Positions 4,657 through 13,292 of a stretch of 19,401 nucleotides of DNA are shown piece after piece (position 1 is the first letter of the stretch; every line of letters starts with the position of its first letter). This DNA is from a virus. The notes beneath the pieces were generated by a model. That model was given only the letters and a program-made list of their open reading frames with translations. It did no database searches and had not been told where the DNA came from. The stretch is from the UHGV virus genome UHGV-0140152. One strand, 5' to 3'. Position numbers and translations under genes: made by a program.

Positions 4657-4908
4657 ATGAGCTATCAAATTCTGACGACGACAGCAGCCAGCATTACTGA
4701 GCTGAAAAGAAACCCTATGGGCACTGTAGCTGAAGGTGAGGGGGAGGCCGTCGCAATCCTGAACCGGAATGAACCCGCGTTTTACTGTGTCCCACCAGAA
4801 CTTTATGCCTACTATCGGGAACTCGCCGAGGACGCTGAACTTAACGCGATTGCAGATGAAAGAATGAAAGAACCGGACATTGTGAAGGTTAACCTGAATG
4901 ACCTATGA
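4657..4908 (+). CDS. stbD: type II antitoxin, Phd/YefM (StbD-like) family
   Basis: 83-aa protein MSYQILTTTAASITELKRNP... resembling StbD/Phd antitoxins; GAGGAGG RBS; overlaps the downstream RelE-like toxin gene. Confidence 0.8.
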   Translation: MSYQILTTTAASITELKRNPMGTVAEGEGEAVAILNRNEPAFYCVPPELYAYYRELAEDAELNAIADERMKEPDIVKVNLNDL

Positions 4909-5179
4909 GCTGGCATTTGAACGCAGGGCACTGAAAGAATGGCAGAAGCTCGGCCACACTGTTCGTGAACAATTCAAAAAGAAGCTGTCAGAGCGCCTGA
5001 AAAATCCACATGTCCCCGCAGCCAGGCTATATGGTCATACTGACCGTTACAAAATTAAGCTTCGCGCATCCGGTTACAGGCTCGTTTATCAGGTAATTGA
5101 TGAGAAGGTTGTTTTGCTTGTCATTGCTGTAGGAAAAAGGGAAAGCAGCGAAGTCTATCACACGGCTGATACTCGTTAG
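4898..5179 (+). CDS. stbE: type II toxin, RelE/StbE family mRNA interferase
   Basis: 93-aa protein with ...RALKEWQKLG..., ...YKIKLRASGYRLVYQVIDEKVV..., ...VGKRESSEVY..., closely matching E. coli RelE as I recall it. Classic coupled antitoxin-toxin arrangement. Confidence 0.85.
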   Translation: MTYELAFERRALKEWQKLGHTVREQFKKKLSERLKNPHVPAARLYGHTDRYKIKLRASGYRLVYQVIDEKVVLLVIAVGKRESSEVYHTADTR

Positions 5180-5204: not shown

Positions 5205-5440
5205 GTTGACTAAATCTCATAATAACCTGAGGTCAATTTCTTCTGTTTGTGACCTCAGGTTAATTTCCTTTATTTATAACCTTAACTTATTAGGCTGCAT
5301 TTTATTCCGCGTCATCGCTTCATTATTTATGTATATGGCGACCTTATTTAATTACGCCCACCTGAACTTACTTCTTTTCCGCCTGTTTCATTCAGCGATA
5401 ATTAACGCATCGAAACGAAACTAAACGAAAGGAGTTAAAA
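5205..5440 (+). promoter_or_regulatory. cassette leader 1 (homologous to 6200-6342)
   Basis: 12-bp inverted repeats aacctgaggtca / tgacctcaggtt, conserved block cctgaacttacttcttttccgcctgtttcattcagcgat and a conserved RBS context. Confidence 0.55.
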
Positions 5441-6160
5441 ATGAGTGCGCGTCTTAAGAAGCTTATCAAAAAGCGTAAATCTCTTAAAGAACATGCAGAA
5501 TTGATAAATTTAATTGAAAAACGTTTTCCAGTCATTTCGGATATTGAGGACTTCTATTGGGTGGAGAAATGTAAAGTTTGGGATGGCATTGATGATGTAA
5601 AAGATGTGGATGATTTTGTCAGCAAGTACAACCCAGACATTAACTACAAACTAGCTGATGATTTTGCTGGCTCGTCTAAAGATGATCCGCTTCCTGATTG
5701 GTTTAACATTGATGATTATCCTAGTTGCATGTGTACCACCTACACCAACAAAGATTTTAGTAAAGCGTGGTTTGCTATTGCTTATGGCTGTTATTTCAAT
5801 AAGTCCGACGGAAGCAAAAGACCATATTTTCTCGCTGAAATAGACTTAACCAGCGGAGAGATTACAGTACACGAAAACCACAGGAATCTAATGAAGCTTG
5901 TTGATAGCGTTCGCGTACTGGATACAGACGCCCAGCAATTAACGAACAATGCATGGTTCGGACTTGATGGAGTAAAAGGGGGTATCGAACTGATAATGGG
6001 TCATCTTTTAAATGAATACTCGGACTGGTATCATCCGCCACACAATCCGCTTGAGTCATTTGACGATCCGCTTGAGCCATTTGACGATCCGCTGAAGGAC
6101 TACATCGATGAACCAATATATATGATGGAATCTTTTCAATTAGATATGATTCCAGCATGA
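5441..6160 (+). CDS. highly acidic hypothetical protein (239 aa); distant paralog of 8856..9503
   Basis: Track ORF; AAGGAG RBS. Shares ...DFSKAWF...FLAEIDLTSGEITV... and NPLESFDD with the minus-strand protein at 8856..9503. Confidence 0.75.
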   Translation: MSARLKKLIKKRKSLKEHAELINLIEKRFPVISDIEDFYWVEKCKVWDGIDDVKDVDDFVSKYNPDINYKLADDFAGSSKDDPLPDWFNIDDYPSCMCTTYTNKDFSKAWFAIAYGCYFNKSDGSKRPYFLAEIDLTSGEITVHENHRNLMKLVDSVRVLDTDAQQLTNNAWFGLDGVKGGIELIMGHLLNEYSDWYHPPHNPLESFDDPLEPFDDPLKDYIDEPIYMMESFQLDMIPA

Positions 6161-6165
6161 CAAAC

Positions 6166-6197
6166 GCCACCAGTTAACGCTGGTGGCTTCAAGTTTT
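6166..6197 (+). terminator. intrinsic terminator
   Basis: GCCACCAG ttaacg CTGGTGGC followed by TTCAAGTTTT. Confidence 0.65.
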
Positions 6198-6199
6198 GC

Positions 6200-6342
6200 T
6201 CTCATCACCTCAGGTCAAATTTCCTCGTTTGCAACCTCAGGTCAATTTAAGAATGATATCACCTGTATCCCTGAACTTACTTCTTTTCTGCCTGTTTCAT
6301 TCAGCGATGATTATTACATCGAAAACAAACGAGGAATTAAAA
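6200..6342 (+). promoter_or_regulatory. cassette leader 2 (homologous to 5205-5440)
   Basis: Two acctcaggtcaa repeats, conserved block cctgaacttacttcttttctgcctgtttcattcagcgat and GAGGA RBS. Confidence 0.55.
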
Positions 6343-7269
6343 ATGAAACCAGTATTTTTGGGGCGAATTGATATTAGTGAATTGTTTTCAGTTAGAGATG
6401 GGTTCCAATATGACTGTGATTGCCTTGAACTTAATGGTCTTGAACGTGAATACAGATTGGCTATTGTGAATGATGGTAAGAAGACATTTTCTGTCGAATG
6501 TTTTGAAAATACTTACTTTAAGCAGGTGTTGAGAATAAGACAGCATGTGGAGATGTCAATTCGGGAAAACATCAAAAATAAATGTGAGTTTCTTGTGGTT
6601 AAAAATGAAGCAGATGAAATAAACTTTGTTACGTTCACTGATAGTGGTCGATTGGCTATGCTGGAGCTATTTCAGCTGATCGTTTCTAATAACAGTATAA
6701 CAGAAGCCTTGAACAGTCTTTCAACTATAGTATCAAGAGAAAGAGAAAACACTGGCGCTTTAATTGTAGAGGAGCTAGATGGAATACTCGAGAAGATCAA
6801 GAATAAAGAGCTGATTATAGAATATGGCAAGGAAAGTAGGAAAAATAATTTACATTCAGCTTTTCACTCCCCATATGTTGAGCGTTTGAATGGTTTGGCT
6901 GCTTTTGTTAATTTGGACTTTAATAGATTTTTTAGTTCTTTTTTTACAGAGTGTGGGCTTGTTATTGTTGAGGTAAATAATGAGAACGATGTCCCCAAAA
7001 TTATAGTACATTCGATGCCTGATATATCTCTCAATGAAATTGGGGACAAACTGGAGAATTTATACGATGTAAAAAGCATGGAAGAACTCATAGAGTATCT
7101 GGCCATAAATGCGGTAGCCATGGCTGATAATGATGTGTTTGGGGTTGGTGCACTGCATGAAGGTTTTCTTGACGCCCTTGAGCTTTACGGGACTGCTCGC
7201 TGGTTTCTGTCAGGATTAGTGGATGATGCACCTTTACTCATCAATACAGATTATTTTTATTCCAGTTGA
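6343..7269 (+). CDS. hypothetical protein (308 aa)
   Basis: In-frame ATG within track ORF 6196..7269, placed after the conserved leader and GAGGA RBS. No family recognised. Confidence 0.7.
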   Translation: MKPVFLGRIDISELFSVRDGFQYDCDCLELNGLEREYRLAIVNDGKKTFSVECFENTYFKQVLRIRQHVEMSIRENIKNKCEFLVVKNEADEINFVTFTDSGRLAMLELFQLIVSNNSITEALNSLSTIVSRERENTGALIVEELDGILEKIKNKELIIEYGKESRKNNLHSAFHSPYVERLNGLAAFVNLDFNRFFSSFFTECGLVIVEVNNENDVPKIIVHSMPDISLNEIGDKLENLYDVKSMEELIEYLAINAVAMADNDVFGVGALHEGFLDALELYGTARWFLSGLVDDAPLLINTDYFYSS

Positions 7270-7275
7270 AAACAA

Positions 7276-7300
7276 GGCCACCACTGCTGGTGGCCTTAAA
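7276..7300 (+). terminator. putative terminator hairpin
   Basis: GGCCACCA ctgc TGGTGGCC hairpin; the T-tract is weak. Confidence 0.45.
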
Positions 7301-7472
7301 TGACCATCCTGTCTCCCGCAGGCTAAAAACACCAACCTCTTACCTCCAGGCAACCGACAAACCCACCTGTTCCCGTCCGGCTACCGCAACTTTCCACTTT
7401 GACGCCTTATTCGTACAACCATAATTAACACCAACAAGAGAACAATTTGTTATTTAGAATAAGGAATCAATC

Positions 7473-7955
7473 ATGAATTTTATCGCTACTGTAAACGCAC
7501 CCGCACATGGCAATATCGCTGTAACGTTCTCTGACACTGAAAAACGAGTACTTGGTGCATGGCGCGACAATGAGACGGTAGAACTGTCAGCACAAGAAAA
7601 ATGCATTATTGCACGCGACATCATTGGCAATCGTCGTTACTCGCGGGTATTTGAGAAAGCGTATGTGGTAAATTCTGGGTTCGGAACGTTCGTCTTTCCG
7701 GTGCGCTCCGGGCGATTCTGCCAGTCCAAGCTGATTGAGTTCGCTACGCAGATTTCTGTCTGGATTAAAACTCAATCGTCGTTCAAATTTTCCGACGATG
7801 AAGCAGTATCGCAGGGGATGCGGATCGCCAACAATGCAATTAAATGCAAAAACATTACGTATACCGCTGGCGTTGACACATGGAGACTGTTTTGCGCTAA
7901 CTTTATGCTGAATGTATACGCAAGCAACCGCATCCACATCCTTGATGGCGTGTAA
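7473..7955 (+). CDS. hypothetical protein (160 aa)
   Basis: Track ORF; AAGGAA RBS; leader shares taacaccaacaagagaacaatttgtt with the 2166 gene. Confidence 0.7.
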   Translation: MNFIATVNAPAHGNIAVTFSDTEKRVLGAWRDNETVELSAQEKCIIARDIIGNRRYSRVFEKAYVVNSGFGTFVFPVRSGRFCQSKLIEFATQISVWIKTQSSFKFSDDEAVSQGMRIANNAIKCKNITYTAGVDTWRLFCANFMLNVYASNRIHILDGV

Positions 7956-7970
7956 CTGAGAAGAGGGCCA

Positions 7971-8085
7971 GAAACGGCCCTTTCTCTATAGCCACCAGCT
8001 GCCGCAGGGAAATTTTCAGAAACGGCTAGGAACGCATTCATGAGCCGACGGGAAACGGCCAGGATTTTTTCGGGAAACGGCTACA
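7971..8085. repeat. iteron-like array, 4 copies of GAAACGGC
   Basis: GAAACGGC at about 7973, 8021, 8054 and 8076; the same core as the 1691-1802 array. The first copy sits in the loop of a GGGCC...GGCCC hairpin. Confidence 0.55.
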
Positions 8086-8207
8086 TTTGCCTTTATGTAG
8101 AAAAAACATCGGGAAGCTGGTGGAATCCAATCAGCGGTTGTCGGACAGGTGAGCGGGGAAAATCATTATGACTCTCGTCACCTGAGACATCCAGATTTCT
8201 TTCATAG

Positions 8208-8260
8208 CGTAATCACATACGTGATTAAGTGGTGTGATTATGTGAAAAATCACGCGCACA
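8208..8260. repeat. cluster of GTGATT/AATCAC inverted repeats
   Basis: TAATCAC-atac-GTGATTA and GTGATT-atgtgaaa-AATCAC within 50 bp, in a convergent intergenic region. Confidence 0.5.
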
Positions 8261-8429
8261 TAATACGCGAGCGGATACGGAACAAAACAAAATGCAGATT
8301 CGCGCCGACAAATAAACGCGGATCATAAAGCAAGACTAAAAGCCAATGATTAACTATGCGCTATAGCGCAATATAACGCATTTTAAGCGCGTTAATGTGT
8401 TAAGTAATGGGTATGTACTGGCAAGGATA

Positions 8430-8570
8430 TAAAAGCGCGTCCATGGCGTTATTTTGGCGCTTATTTTTATGTTGTTGGAGTGAGTTAAAGACAATAAAAA
8501 AGCGCCATCATTGGCGCGTTATGGTGGGAGTATTGGAAACGAAAAAAGCGCCCATAGTGGGCGCTCGATT
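8430..8570. repeat. tandem GC-stem hairpins of the GCGCC(C)A-N-TGGGCGC family
   Basis: gcgccatcattggcgc and gcgcccatagtgggcgc, each flanked by A/T runs; plausibly bidirectional terminators. Confidence 0.5.
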
Positions 8571-8801
8571 TTATTTATGTAAACTGATTTCAAATCCCAT
8601 TTCTACAAACGCTTTTAACATTAAAAATATATCAGCGTCGTTCACGTCTGCTTTTTTCCGCTCCTGGTCGCTCAATAAGTCAATTTTGCGCGTCGTTTCG
8701 TCTATAAGCTCGACTGCGCGCCCAGCGTAACCAGCGATCCCAGCGATGCGATTAACATAATATTCATTATGGACGTTAACGCCAGCGATTAAAATAATCA
8801 T
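8571..8801 (-). CDS. small hypothetical protein (76 aa)
   Basis: Track ORF; AAGGAG RBS on the minus strand immediately after the 8824-8841 hairpin. Confidence 0.6.
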   Translation of the reverse strand: MIILIAGVNVHNEYYVNRIAGIAGYAGRAVELIDETTRKIDLLSDQERKKADVNDADIFLMLKAFVEMGFEISLHK

Positions 8802-8823
8802 GCTTTAAAAACTCCTTTAAATG

Positions 8824-8841
8824 CGCCCATATTTGGGCGCA
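8824..8841. repeat. hairpin GCGCCCATATTTGGGCGC (identical copy at 9577-9594)
   Basis: Perfect 7-bp stem between the stop of 8856..9503 and the RBS of 8571..8801. Confidence 0.6.
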
Positions 8842-8855
8842 TGATTTATATGGTA

Positions 8856-9503
8856 TTATTCAAAATATGGAAATGCAGAATTTTCTTCATGATCTAATAC
8901 GAAAGTTTTTTCATTAATATAATTTGGCGCATTATCGCCAAATGATTCTAGTGGTTCGAGATGATTGAAATCATCTTTTTTAATAAAGTAGGATATATAA
9001 TAGATACCATCGTGTAAATCAGCCAAACCACACCAAATATAATAGCCAATAGGATAACATGCAGGACCACGATTCACATAAACTGTAATTTTTCCGCTTA
9101 ATAAATCCATCTCAGCAAAAAAAGCTAATCCGCTTTTTTCCTCTTCTCCTTCTTTTTCTCTGATTTTTCCGTTTAGAACGTCAGCACTTTGAATAAACCA
9201 CGCTCTAGTAAAATCCGCGTTAACATATGTAGCAAATTCGCCAAAGTCGCAATTTTTGCGCAAGTTGGGTAAATCCTCGATTAAATCGAGATTGATATTT
9301 AATTGCGCTGTATTTTCAGCAATAATTAGCTCTGCTTTCGTTAATTCCGTGTTATTAAATTCTGGCTTTTTTTCTGGTAATTTGTGCACTACTTCTTTGA
9401 TTTTGTCAGCGAATTTAATTTTTGATTTAATCAATGGAAGACGAGATTCAGCCATCTCTACGAAAGCAGAGATAAAAGATTCGCAAACAGTAAAAGTTTT
9501 CAT
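8856..9503 (-). CDS. hypothetical protein (215 aa); distant paralog of 5441..6160
   Basis: Track ORF; GAGGAA RBS. Shares ...DFTRAWF...FFAEMDLLSGKITV... and EPLESFGD with 5441..6160. Confidence 0.75.
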   Translation of the reverse strand: MKTFTVCESFISAFVEMAESRLPLIKSKIKFADKIKEVVHKLPEKKPEFNNTELTKAELIIAENTAQLNINLDLIEDLPNLRKNCDFGEFATYVNADFTRAWFIQSADVLNGKIREKEGEEEKSGLAFFAEMDLLSGKITVYVNRGPACYPIGYYIWCGLADLHDGIYYISYFIKKDDFNHLEPLESFGDNAPNYINEKTFVLDHEENSAFPYFE

Positions 9504-9536
9504 ATTAAATTCCTCAATTAAAATCTGAACCAGATG

Positions 9537-9594
9537 AATAAAGCTAATATTAGCTTTATTCCGAGTTTTATCTCATGCGCCCATATTTGGGCGC
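9537..9594. repeat. perfect 24-bp palindrome plus second copy of the GCGCCCATATTTGGGCGC hairpin
   Basis: AATAAAGCTAATATTAGCTTTATT (9537-9560) and gcgcccatatttgggcgc (9577-9594), between the genes at 9608..10258 and 8856..9503. Confidence 0.6.
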
Positions 9595-9607
9595 TTGATT
9601 CCATTAA

Positions 9608-10258
9608 TTACGCTTTAAAAGCATCAGCTAGATAATTGTAGAAATCTTTTTTAATGAAGCGATATTGTTGAGTACCAGCTTTGGCGCTTCCCATTCCTTT
9701 GACTTTCTCAACAAGTCCGAGACGTTCGCAAAGATTGATTAGCTGGTTAGCTTGAGTATAGCCAGCGTCTAAGCGTAAATCATTTGCTCGCTTAACTTCA
9801 TTCATTAAATCAAAAACAGCGCCATTAGTAAAAACTTCTACTTCGTCTTTGATCATGTGAACAAGTGCAAACACGCGTGATCCGCTCATATCGTCTTTGG
9901 AGTACTCGCATTTACCAGCTTTGATAGATTTAACCAGATAAACTAATTTTTCCAGTGAGTAACTGTTAGTCATCGCTTCGCGGAAAAACACTTCTGGTGC
10001 TTGTTTGCTTGCTTTAATCGCAAAGTAAAACACAGCAGACAATTTTTCGTCGTTAACAGCAGACAAAATGTTATTAGAGAAATATTTTAACTTTGTAGAA
10101 GCAGCGCGAAGATTATCTTTATCGTTTTTGGTCAGCGCGCCAGTGCTATTAAGAAGTTCATTCTTTTGCCCCAAGTCGTTAGCTTTTGCACCCAGCTCAG
10201 CAGCAACAATATTAGCAGCTTCAACGATGTTTTTTTTAGATAATATAATGTTGGTCAT
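9608..10258 (-). CDS. hypothetical protein (216 aa)
   Basis: Track ORF; AGGA RBS about 9 nt upstream on the minus strand. No family recognised. Confidence 0.7.
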   Translation of the reverse strand: MTNIILSKKNIVEAANIVAAELGAKANDLGQKNELLNSTGALTKNDKDNLRAASTKLKYFSNNILSAVNDEKLSAVFYFAIKASKQAPEVFFREAMTNSYSLEKLVYLVKSIKAGKCEYSKDDMSGSRVFALVHMIKDEVEVFTNGAVFDLMNEVKRANDLRLDAGYTQANQLINLCERLGLVEKVKGMGSAKAGTQQYRFIKKDFYNYLADAFKA

Positions 10259-10512
10259 GATTTCAATCCTTAGATCAAATTAGAAAATTTATTTCGTTCT
10301 ATCGTTAGCGTGTTCGCTTTCGACGAGTTCAATTATCGATACGCAAAAAAAGATTGCAAGTGTTTTTTCTTAGTTTTTTACAGGGACGAAAGTCCTAGAA
10401 ATAAAAGCGAGATCGTCGAAGGTGTTCCCTAAATAAATAATCTACTCCGGCTTTTAACCTTATATATTTATACGGAGTGGAATAGGGGGTATTAAATGAA
10501 TGGCGTGTAAAA

Positions 10513-10549: not shown

Positions 10550-11113
10550 TTAAAATGGAAGGATTCGGTCAACCCAATCGAAGAGAACAATCATTCTTGC
10601 ATGTTCCCTGATTTTCATCGTCACCTGACAAGCATCAACGCCTAACGACACTCCCTCTATTTCACGGCCATCCGCCATGTAGACCCTTATAGATCTGCCG
10701 TTTTGATGAGCTTTGCGACATATCTTAAAAAAGTCACGACGTGATGGCTGGTTGTTCACGTAGTCAGGATGTACGGTAAGCCTGTCCGCAAAGTCCCCAT
10801 CTACTTCTGGAGGTATAATCGTTTCTATAGAGCTAACTTTCCCAAGAGGAAGACGAACTCGACGCTCTTTGCTTCTTGGAACGGGTGATAGATCAAGTTT
10901 GTTGCGTGATGGTAGTGTTCCCTGTACATACATGTTGAATACCTGTCCATCTTCCATCGTGACTTTTACAGGAACAGAGTGTGCCCTCCAGAACATCAAG
11001 GTATGTTCCACATTAGAATAGTCTCGCGGCCATACTTCAGCCGGTATGCCGTATGTAATATCTTTCGTCGTCATATCATTATAAAGTGGTTGGCAATATG
11101 TCCATTGTACCAT
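10550..11113 (-). CDS. hypothetical protein (187 aa; possibly 174 aa from an internal ATG at about 11074)
   Basis: Track ORF. The 11113 start overlaps the lipoprotein gene by 35 nt; the alternative ATG lies a few nt after the lipoprotein stop. No clear RBS for either. Confidence 0.55.
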   Translation of the reverse strand: MVQWTYCQPLYNDMTTKDITYGIPAEVWPRDYSNVEHTLMFWRAHSVPVKVTMEDGQVFNMYVQGTLPSRNKLDLSPVPRSKERRVRLPLGKVSSIETIIPPEVDGDFADRLTVHPDYVNNQPSRRDFFKICRKAHQNGRSIRVYMADGREIEGVSLGVDACQVTMKIREHARMIVLFDWVDRILPF

Positions 11114-12311: not shown

Positions 12312-13292
12312 TTAATTGGTGTTTTTGTTCTTCTCTTTTTTGCTAATTTCATCACATGTAAGGTTCATTATGTCTATGTTTTCTTGCTTTTGAAGGTTGC
12401 CGACAATTTTTTTGCGCAATTCATAAAATCGCTCGCGTGGTATAGCTTCCTTGTTGCCGTTGATGTGAAGTATTGCGTGACAGCTAGGGCAGACGGCAAT
12501 CAGATCTGTTTTTGGGTTCACGCTTCGTGCATCTTCGCCTTGTGAAAGTGGGACGATGTGGTGAGCGTGTAGCAGCGTTTTCGTTTCTTTGCCGTCAATT
12601 TCCTTGCCGTATATTTCCGACATCGTTCTGCAACATAATTGACACCTGTAGTCTGCGTTTGCCAGAACGTCATTCCTTAACCCGGATACGCGGCTACGAT
12701 GTTGCGACTGGATTAATCTTGTTTCGCCCTCTATATATTCCTCAACTTCTTCTTTCTGGAGGTCGTAGCTGATTTCTTCTTGAGTCGGATGGACTTTTTT
12801 GTATAGAAGATCAAGATATTTAATGTCCTCTGTTATATATTTGGAATCCTCTAGCGAGGATATTTTTCCTGAGTCTATGTAGTCAATTAATGTAATAAGG
12901 AACATCTCTATCGATAGCCTGTTTTTAAAGGCAAACGAATATCCAAGATGTCTTCTATCTCCTGAATGAATTGGCGTCCAATGAGATTTCTCAATTTTTT
13001 GTGGTGTTACGCAGATACCTTTGCCGATATTGTTTACATGTTCCAATAATTGATAAACAGAATTAATGCGGTAAGCATGTGTTACTAAAGAATTTATTTT
13101 TCTTGTGCCGACGGAGGATTTTGTCATAACAACATGATGAGATATTTGTTTTTTTAAAATCAAATCATACGATGTAGCTTTTTGGTTTTCGCCTTTGTCG
13201 GTTTTTTTTATTAAATTTAGTTTTTTATTAGAGGCTATTTTCTCTATTTCTTCTCTAACTTCTTTTATCGTCATGTAAGTTTCTTTTGTCAT
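12312..13292 (-). CDS. HNH endonuclease, McrA-like C-terminal domain with an unrecognised N-terminal domain (326 aa)
   Basis: C-terminus YRCQLCC...LLHAHHIVPLSQGEDARSVNPKTDLIAVCPSCHAILH is an HNH motif with two Cys pairs, arranged like McrA. AT-rich gene. Confidence 0.8.
   Translation of the reverse strand: MTKETYMTIKEVREEIEKIASNKKLNLIKKTDKGENQKATSYDLILKKQISHHVVMTKSSVGTRKINSLVTHAYRINSVYQLLEHVNNIGKGICVTPQKIEKSHWTPIHSGDRRHLGYSFAFKNRLSIEMFLITLIDYIDSGKISSLEDSKYITEDIKYLDLLYKKVHPTQEEISYDLQKEEVEEYIEGETRLIQSQHRSRVSGLRNDVLANADYRCQLCCRTMSEIYGKEIDGKETKTLLHAHHIVPLSQGEDARSVNPKTDLIAVCPSCHAILHINGNKEAIPRERFYELRKKIVGNLQKQENIDIMNLTCDEISKKEKNKNTN

Follow-up and report, generated by a model that had tools for sequence, protein, structure and literature searches.

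The 19,401-nucleotide virus genome UHGV-0140152 (hereafter the window, meaning this whole stretch of DNA) encodes two small acidic proteins that share short motifs, and it raises the question of whether they are true relatives and what they may do for the element that carries them. We call the 215-amino-acid (aa) protein encoded at 8856..9503 on the minus strand A and the 239-aa protein encoded at 5441..6160 on the plus strand B. The original prediction, made from the nucleotide sequence alone, took them for diversified paralogs of an immunity-protein or anti-restriction (DNA-mimic) family. The main outcome of our analysis is that the paralogy is real, that the DNA-mimic and immunity labels are unsupported, and that both genes are accessory cassettes, rare and dispensable. 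Together, A and B make up a tiny orphan family of two branches, which turned up only on SSU5-like phage-plasmids of Escherichia.

Two branches of an orphan family

Both open reading frames (ORFs) are present at these coordinates, preceded by Shine-Dalgarno sequences (GAGGA at 9511-9515 for A, AAGGAG at 5429-5434 for B), and they lie on opposite strands 2.7 kb apart, in keeping with the distance of about 3 kb first given. BLASTP aligned residues 91-204 of A with residues 99-230 of B at 27% identity over 138 residues, and the significance of this alignment (E = 8e-8) bears out the claim of distant paralogy. The Smith-Waterman score of the pair is 101, compared with 33.4 +/- 5.0 (maximum, 56) in 2,000 shuffles (z = 13.6), and among all window open frames of at least 80 codons, B is the sole match to A scoring above 45, and vice versa. 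A full-length MAFFT alignment of the two proteins is collinear, with 43 to 46 invariant columns. The retention of motifs and full-length collinearity at 27% identity implies long purifying selection.

The three shared motifs originally described, DF[ST][KR]AWF, F[LF]AE[IM]DL[TL]SG[EK]ITV, and PLESF[DG]D, were all recovered at their expected places. By alignment, the first is DFTRAWF in A (residues 97-103; nucleotides 9195-9215, minus strand) and DFSKAWF in B (residues 105-111; 5753-5773, plus strand), and the two DNA segments are identical at 19 of 21 positions, forming an inverted repeat (I5). The second is FFAEMDLLSGKITV in A (residues 128-141; 9081-9122, minus strand), which spans predicted beta-strands 126-133 and 139-143, and its counterpart in B is FLAEIDLTSGEITV (residues 130-143; 5828-5869, plus strand). 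The third, PLESFGD in A (residues 184-190; 8934-8954, minus strand), falls in a low-confidence acidic linker that precedes the last predicted beta-strand and is probably flexible. In B, PLESFDD (residues 203-209) is followed directly by a duplicated PLEPFDD (residues 210-216), the product of a 21-bp in-frame tandem duplication at 6045..6093 on the plus strand (Tandem Repeats Finder and alignment). The duplication is unique to the window's B, being missing in all 13 other aligned B alleles, and its occurrence in one allele suggests that the acidic PLESF segment is a linker that tolerates changes in length. A reading of PLESFDD as a linear motif of the clamp-binding kind or like the tail of single-stranded DNA-binding protein was dropped, since its match to the consensus sequences of such motifs was poor.

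No family could be assigned to A or B in Pfam, PHROGs, NCBIfam, or PADLOC at strict thresholds (E <= 0.1 for hmmscan against Pfam-A), nor in Pfam or PHROGs at lenient thresholds (E <= 10 for Pfam-A, run over five family members). Close orthologs were all that emerged from 5.8 billion clustered proteins, even when a joint profile of A and B served as the query, phmmer against 1.84 billion representatives returned only fragments of A, and a profile search of PDB sequences returned no match. At the nucleotide level, tblastn against plasmids yielded seven Escherichia albertii copies of A and one copy of B; pattern scans yielded one further B in IMG/VR (L064) and no A or B match in JGI metagenomes. 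We also found no third branch by hmmsearch among 6,574 ORFs from 64 SSU5-like sources. All database names for the family read "hypothetical protein," no papers were found for its RefSeq accessions, and none of the alternative occupants of the two gene slots or of the operon partners has a known function. The original statement that the family could not be named therefore stands, and it does so because the family is a true orphan: neither a profile family nor a distant relative emerged from these searches.

AlphaFold2 models of A and B, built from a 5-sequence alignment, are of moderate confidence (A, predicted local distance difference test [pLDDT] of 58 and predicted template modeling score [pTM] of 0.59; B, pLDDT of 60.5 and pTM of 0.68). 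The predicted topology common to both comprises N-terminal helices, a 4- to 6-stranded antiparallel sheet, a long helix, an acidic linker, and a last strand. Both core motifs map to the predicted sheet and the PLESF segment to the low-confidence acidic linker, and the predicted final strand is conserved. This predicted fold, with its beta-sheet core, found no match among solved structures. No catalytic domain was detected in either protein in the strict or lenient Pfam runs, and neither sequence has transmembrane or signal features.

Both proteins are acidic, as first described, with pI values of 4.82 for A (16.7% aspartate plus glutamate [D+E], net charge -13) and 4.57 for B (18.8% D+E, net charge -19). 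Describing B as extremely D/E-rich was an overstatement, as its composition is matched by two window neighbors unrelated to A and B, a 308-aa ORF (16.6% D+E) and ParD (18% D+E). Both have acidic tails (net charge -13 in B 181-239 and -7 in A 181-215). A also has the lowest GC content in the window (33%; 25% at third codon positions), compared with 39.6% in B, 43% in the whole window, and 45 to 52% in backbone genes.

Single-gene cassettes of a phage-plasmid

The window belongs to an SSU5-like phage-plasmid and makes up its accessory arm, the variable island in which the original prediction correctly placed its divergent paralogs. It is 92 to 94% identical to Escherichia phages Cyrano, CMS-2020a, and PhiR41_1 and 84% identical to Salmonella phage SSU5. 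Further matches number in the hundreds and are ~110-kb, non-mobilizable plasmids of E. coli, Klebsiella, Salmonella, and Yersinia. Conserved landmarks at its right include a UvsW-like DEAD-box helicase, two ParB-like genes, and ABC ATPases, and metG lies to the left of the corresponding region in relatives; A and B are carried on an SSU5-like replicon and flanked by backbone genes. In the SSU5 supergroup, 35 persistent gene families compare with 815 cloud families, and the plasmid-side genes are variable (Pfeifer et al. 2021, PMC7969092).

Within this arm, A and B are single-gene cassettes in separate fixed slots, gained, lost, and exchanged at short shared sequences. We found A in seven E. 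albertii plasmids of 62 to 64 kb and a handful of E. coli contigs, and the somewhat commoner B in 171 index blocks of the collection, with the slot constant for each. Among 5,426 complete E. coli genomes, the backbone occurs in 362, B in one, and A in none. Each of 27 related loci that carry one paralog (8 with A, 19 with B) lacks the other, and the window is the only examined element with both, so that the co-occurrence of diversified paralogs in one island, originally regarded as typical, is in fact the exception. The E. albertii plasmids (e.g., L001/L065, NZ_CP034165.1, 63.8 kb) are SSU5-like derivatives that encode replication, partition, and accessory functions along with copies of the insertion sequences IS110 and IS911. 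They carry an intact A and have no annotated virion genes, and A persists in this defective derivative.

The slot of A lies between a 216-aa gene (phrog_1513) and a 76-aa gene (phrog_1585), and here E. coli contigs and E. albertii plasmids carry orthologs with 85 to 87% identity. Its boundaries are two copies of a 26-nt direct repeat (D7) on the minus strand, each forming a hairpin: copy 1, GCGCCCAAATATGGGCGC, at 9575..9600 upstream of A and copy 2, 96% identical (dG, -15.9 kcal/mol), at 8821..8846 downstream, with 754 nt from start to start. An AT-rich perfect palindrome with an 11-bp stem (9536..9561, minus strand) lies between copy 1 and the A start codon. Elements without A have a single hairpin copy, and their 216-aa and 76-aa genes are 47 to 84 bp apart, compared with 802 to 806 bp in loci with A. 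Among the compared loci, this slot is empty in 12, contains a 67- to 82-aa gene in 6, and is occupied by A in 7 plus the window. A has no leader of its own and is flanked by hairpins without T-runs. From gene order and these short intergenic hairpins, a unit comprising the 216-aa gene, A, and the 76-aa gene likely starts at a promoter-like site, TTGCAA-16-GATAAT, upstream of the 216-aa gene (10332..10359, minus strand; identified by consensus scan only) and ends at a terminator at 8546-8566; A probably depends on this promoter-like site.

B lies upstream of a 160-aa gene (phrog_1641), where it is present or absent among relatives, and its orthologs in SSU5-like elements are 232 aa long and 83 to 98% identical. 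Its cassette begins with a leader of about 200 nt (5222..5421, plus strand) composed of block D2 (5222-5266) and then block D1 (5361-5421), in which a consensus scan found no sigma-70 promoter, and closes with a terminator-like hairpin, GCCACCAG..CTGGTGGC (6166..6187, plus strand; dG, -16.9). Both leader blocks recur upstream of the 308-aa gene (6204-6248 and 6270-6330), D1 recurs again at 7384-7444 upstream of the 160-aa gene, and a hairpin homologous to that at 6166-6187 follows the 308-aa gene at 7274-7301 and closes the next cassette. In the leaders of both B and the 308-aa gene, D2 contains two 9-bp palindromes, ACCTnAGGT, 27 bp apart (5225-5233 and 5252-5260; 6207-6215 and 6234-6242), and from their sequence and arrangement these paired sites look like operators for a dimeric regulator. 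Counting both strands and allowing up to one mismatch, there are 10 ACCTnAGGT matches compared with 2.5 expected, and 8 of these are the four leader sites. In the B leader, a 13-bp hairpin (dG, -21.6) can also form by pairing of the two sites.

The neighbors of B vary as well. Directly upstream of its cassette is a Phd/YefM-like antitoxin and ParE toxin pair (4657-5179, plus strand) that is itself variably present among relatives. The downstream 308-aa ORF (6343-7269, plus strand) is another acidic orphan (pI 4.6) in a cassette of its own, with a leader and terminator designed like those of B, and its presence or absence is independent of that of B. Its true start is ATG at 6343 (Shine-Dalgarno sequence GAGGA) and not TTG at 6196 as in the list of open reading frames, and it differs from the L017 allele by nine nonsynonymous changes and one synonymous change.

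When the window was compared with each of ten relatives by blastn, homology breakpoints recurred at 5371/5372, 6187, 6270/6280, 7274, 8821/8846, 9577, and 10552, all coinciding with cassette edges; the breakpoint at 9577 recurs in 9 of the 10 compared loci. Synonymous divergence (dS) between the window and an E. albertii plasmid (L001) rises abruptly between neighboring genes, with values of 0.07 for A and 1.05 for the 216-aa gene, which places a recombination junction at the hairpin. The boundary hairpins resemble those of transcript ends or processing, apparently put to a second use as patches of homology, and they imply no dedicated recombinase. The window's alleles of the 216-aa phrog_1513 gene (9608-10258, minus strand) and of a FljA-like regulator (10550-11113, minus strand) have only 74% and 65 to 71% protein identity, respectively, to the alleles of elements that are otherwise >90% identical, with dS above 1 in both cases. 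Since the homology junctions fall at 9577 and 10552, these are allele replacements at cassette edges.

Evolutionary rate and candidate functions

We estimated ratios of nonsynonymous to synonymous divergence (dN/dS) by the Nei-Gojobori method from three alleles of A and three allele groups of B. For A, dN/dS is 1.13 between the window and E. albertii (38.5 nonsynonymous and 8.5 synonymous changes) and 0.83 between the window and an E. coli allele (L005); for B, it is 0.85 and 0.67 against the two other allele groups. Genes on either side, at comparable dS, have ratios of 0.15 to 0.36, and their contrast with A and B is significant (Fisher P = 0.015 to 0.019). Replacements in A are in excess in the C-terminal helix and tail: in residues 146-215, the C-terminal third, the proportion of nonsynonymous differences (pN) is 0.13 to 0.14 compared with 0.04 elsewhere, at an equal proportion of synonymous differences (pS) (P = 1e-4), and the beta-sheet core evolves 3 to 4 times more slowly than the C terminus. 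Because pS is not raised there, we rejected an older recombined segment as the source of this excess. The C-terminal ratio reaches 1.7 to 2.0, but synonymous changes there are too scarce for positive selection to be proved, and positions shared by A and B are not significantly depleted of variation within each branch (P = 0.37). Both proteins retain the core sheet and its two motifs, with unusually rapid amino acid change outside it; the raised dN/dS fits a conflict-type role.

We tentatively favor, as the foremost of several possibilities and at less than even confidence, the reading of A and B as cytoplasmic, non-enzymatic binding proteins that act as anti-defense-type inhibitors. The conserved beta-sheet core would provide the scaffold, and contact with a partner, most probably a host or rival-element protein to be neutralized by the phage-plasmid, would fall to the variable C-terminal helix and the acidic tail; A and B might then have different targets or target alleles. 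A fuller version, in which they found a structurally new family of fast-evolving inhibitors that plug as cassettes into slots defined by hairpins and leaders and carry a C-terminal recognition module, the window holding two specificities, is a more doubtful proposition.

Several observations count against an inhibitor role. The models are moderate by pLDDT and pTM, and therefore "no fold match" and "non-enzymatic" are weak negatives. The variable residues do not cluster significantly on one face of the long helix (P = 0.2 to 0.4), and with alleles so few, a dN/dS near 1 is indistinguishable from relaxed constraint. One A allele, from a 112-kb E. coli plasmid (P0003, XIW73912.1), is frameshifted after about residue 128 and yields a 134-aa product, and therefore A is dispensable in at least one element. 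Intact A also occurs in virion-less, non-mobilizable E. albertii plasmids, where anti-defense at the time of entry would be of little use. Finally, the moron-like layout of B, with its own leader and terminator and an adjoining ParDE pair, and transcription from its slot in Cyrano fit a role in the resident state, in defense or exclusion, equally well.

This last point leads to the nearest rival, which we regard as a real if rather unlikely prospect: that A and B are morons expressed from the plasmid-prophage, protecting the lysogen through exclusion of superinfecting phages or plasmids or as a single-protein defense or decoy, and not as an aid to invasion. The operator-like palindromes and terminator hairpin of B beside a ParDE maintenance module would suit such genes, as would the persistence of A in plasmids without virions and a low GC content, typical of morons, and fast evolution is also expected of the specificity determinants of defense systems. 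During lysogeny, expression of CYRAN_109, which occupies B's slot in phage Cyrano, exceeds background 6-fold (PMC9928086). The 216-aa and 76-aa genes that share an operon with A, however, are not in the lysogeny-expressed set of that phage (PMC9928086). Neither protein matches PADLOC, and both lack the membrane segment, nuclease, NTPase, or effector domain usual in exclusion and abortive-infection proteins. We consider it improbable that the two genes are instead decaying or functionless passengers drifting neutrally in a recombination hotspot, a scenario in which a dN/dS of about 1, the extreme rarity of the genes, their absence from most SSU5-like elements, and the frameshifted allele would all be expected. 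Against drift, the motifs and collinearity have survived to 27% identity, the beta-sheet core changes more slowly than the C terminus at equal pS, both genes have strong Shine-Dalgarno sequences, and the 215-codon frame of A has stayed open in 33%-GC DNA through 46 substitutions (neutral P of about 0.07). The conserved motifs, open frame, and slow core argue against a dead gene and suggest that the function of A and B is retained.

The two families originally put forward fare worse. DNA mimics of the Ocr or ArdA type, which titrate type I restriction enzymes, would share with A and B a net negative charge, acidic tails, a mobile-element location, and fast evolution. Ocr is roughly 29% D+E; A and B, at 17 to 19% D+E and pI 4.6 to 4.8, are no more acidic than their two unrelated neighbors, and their acidic stretches are predicted to lie in low-confidence linkers and not on a rigid surface. 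With no Pfam match to Ocr, ArdA, or KlcA/ArdB even at E <= 10 and no fold match for the moderate-confidence models, this identification found no support, and we judge it very unlikely. An immunity function in a polymorphic toxin system, suggested by small diversified paralogs and by the ParE toxin gene upstream of B, is less probable still and is essentially refuted by context. The only toxin nearby, ParE, is paired with its own ParD, and B occurs without ParDE in six loci (L003, L011, and L013-L016). Co-occurrence with polymorphic toxin loci, the proposed check, was not seen: neither the window nor the 27 related loci that carry A or B contain a large toxin, Rhs, CdiA, type VI secretion system, or colicin gene. 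Furthermore, A and B are each single-gene cassettes, and neither has an Imm-family Pfam match or an Imm, SUKH, or similar domain.

Surrounding features and comparison with known systems

The two slots lie on either side of a convergent junction at 7955-8571, where the plus-strand series of ParD, ParE, B, the 308-aa acidic ORF, and the 160-aa gene meets a minus-strand series that includes the FljA-like gene, the 216-aa gene, A, and the 76-aa gene. On both strands the junction is dense in GC-rich GCGCC..GGCGC hairpins followed by T-runs, and terminator-like sites between 4000 and 11000 number 16, compared with 6.8 expected. A 107-aa ORF (8407..8730; pI 10.6) in the convergent stretch is probably spurious. 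Farther left, a G-depleted tract of ~700 nt (~740-1450; 12% G, 39% A, 32% C) holds no convincing gene and is followed by a G-rich stretch (1560-1990) with a 22-nt tandem repeat at 1695-1743; relatives have a gene-free gap of ~1.5 kb at this position, and a ~70-nt piece of the G-depleted tract (994-1064) recurs upstream of the 160-aa gene (7324-7390). This region could be a long leader, a noncoding RNA, or an origin-like region, and neither a tRNA nor an Rfam family was found in the window. Another variable slot, between the block of the FljA-like gene and the helicase, holds a 326-aa HNH-endonuclease-domain protein (12312-13292, minus strand), replaced in relatives by a 266-aa plus-strand lipoprotein-like gene, a 377-aa HNH gene, or genes of 117 to 191 aa.

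In the concept of Juhala and Hendrix, morons are lone accessory genes that have entered between conserved genes of a temperate phage and bring along a promoter and terminator of their own. A and B resemble them in their presence/absence polymorphism at fixed sites between conserved genes, in an atypically low GC content, in the terminator hairpin beside B, and in the lysogenic expression of a gene from a neighboring slot in Cyrano (PMC9928086). They differ in that A is leaderless and lies within an operon, with a copy of a hairpin that lacks T-runs on each side, and in that the B leader has no detected sigma-70 consensus promoter. As rare genes in the variable plasmid-side arm of an SSU5-like element, A and B also resemble the cloud genes of the SSU5 supergroup (PMC7969092), although cloud denotes a frequency class and not a function.

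PeSL-flanked cassettes of T4-like phages are exchangeable gene cassettes bounded by stem-loops. The hairpin and leader sequences at the ends of the A and B cassettes likewise coincide with recombination breakpoints, in a different phage group and with different repeat sequences. Like Ocr (T7 gp0.3) and ArdA, A and B are small, acidic, borne on mobile elements, and possibly fast evolving, but they have no sequence similarity to these proteins and, from models of moderate confidence, no detected fold similarity, are much less acidic, and are predicted to be alpha/beta, whereas Ocr is all-helical. With the immunity families of polymorphic toxins, they share the pattern of small diversified paralogs; unlike those families, they have no nearby cognate toxin or Imm-type domain and reside in phage-plasmid cassettes. 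What is new here is the protein family, which is previously undescribed; the kind of element, a moron or accessory cassette, is already known.

Clinical E. coli, Shigella, Salmonella, and Klebsiella commonly carry SSU5-like phage-plasmids. Few anti-defense genes have so far been recognized in these elements (bioRxiv 10.1101/2025.09.12.675607). If A and B do inhibit a host defense or a rival element, they would add a new fold and a new family to the catalogue of anti-defense proteins, and both cassette slots would become places to mine for more anti-defense genes.

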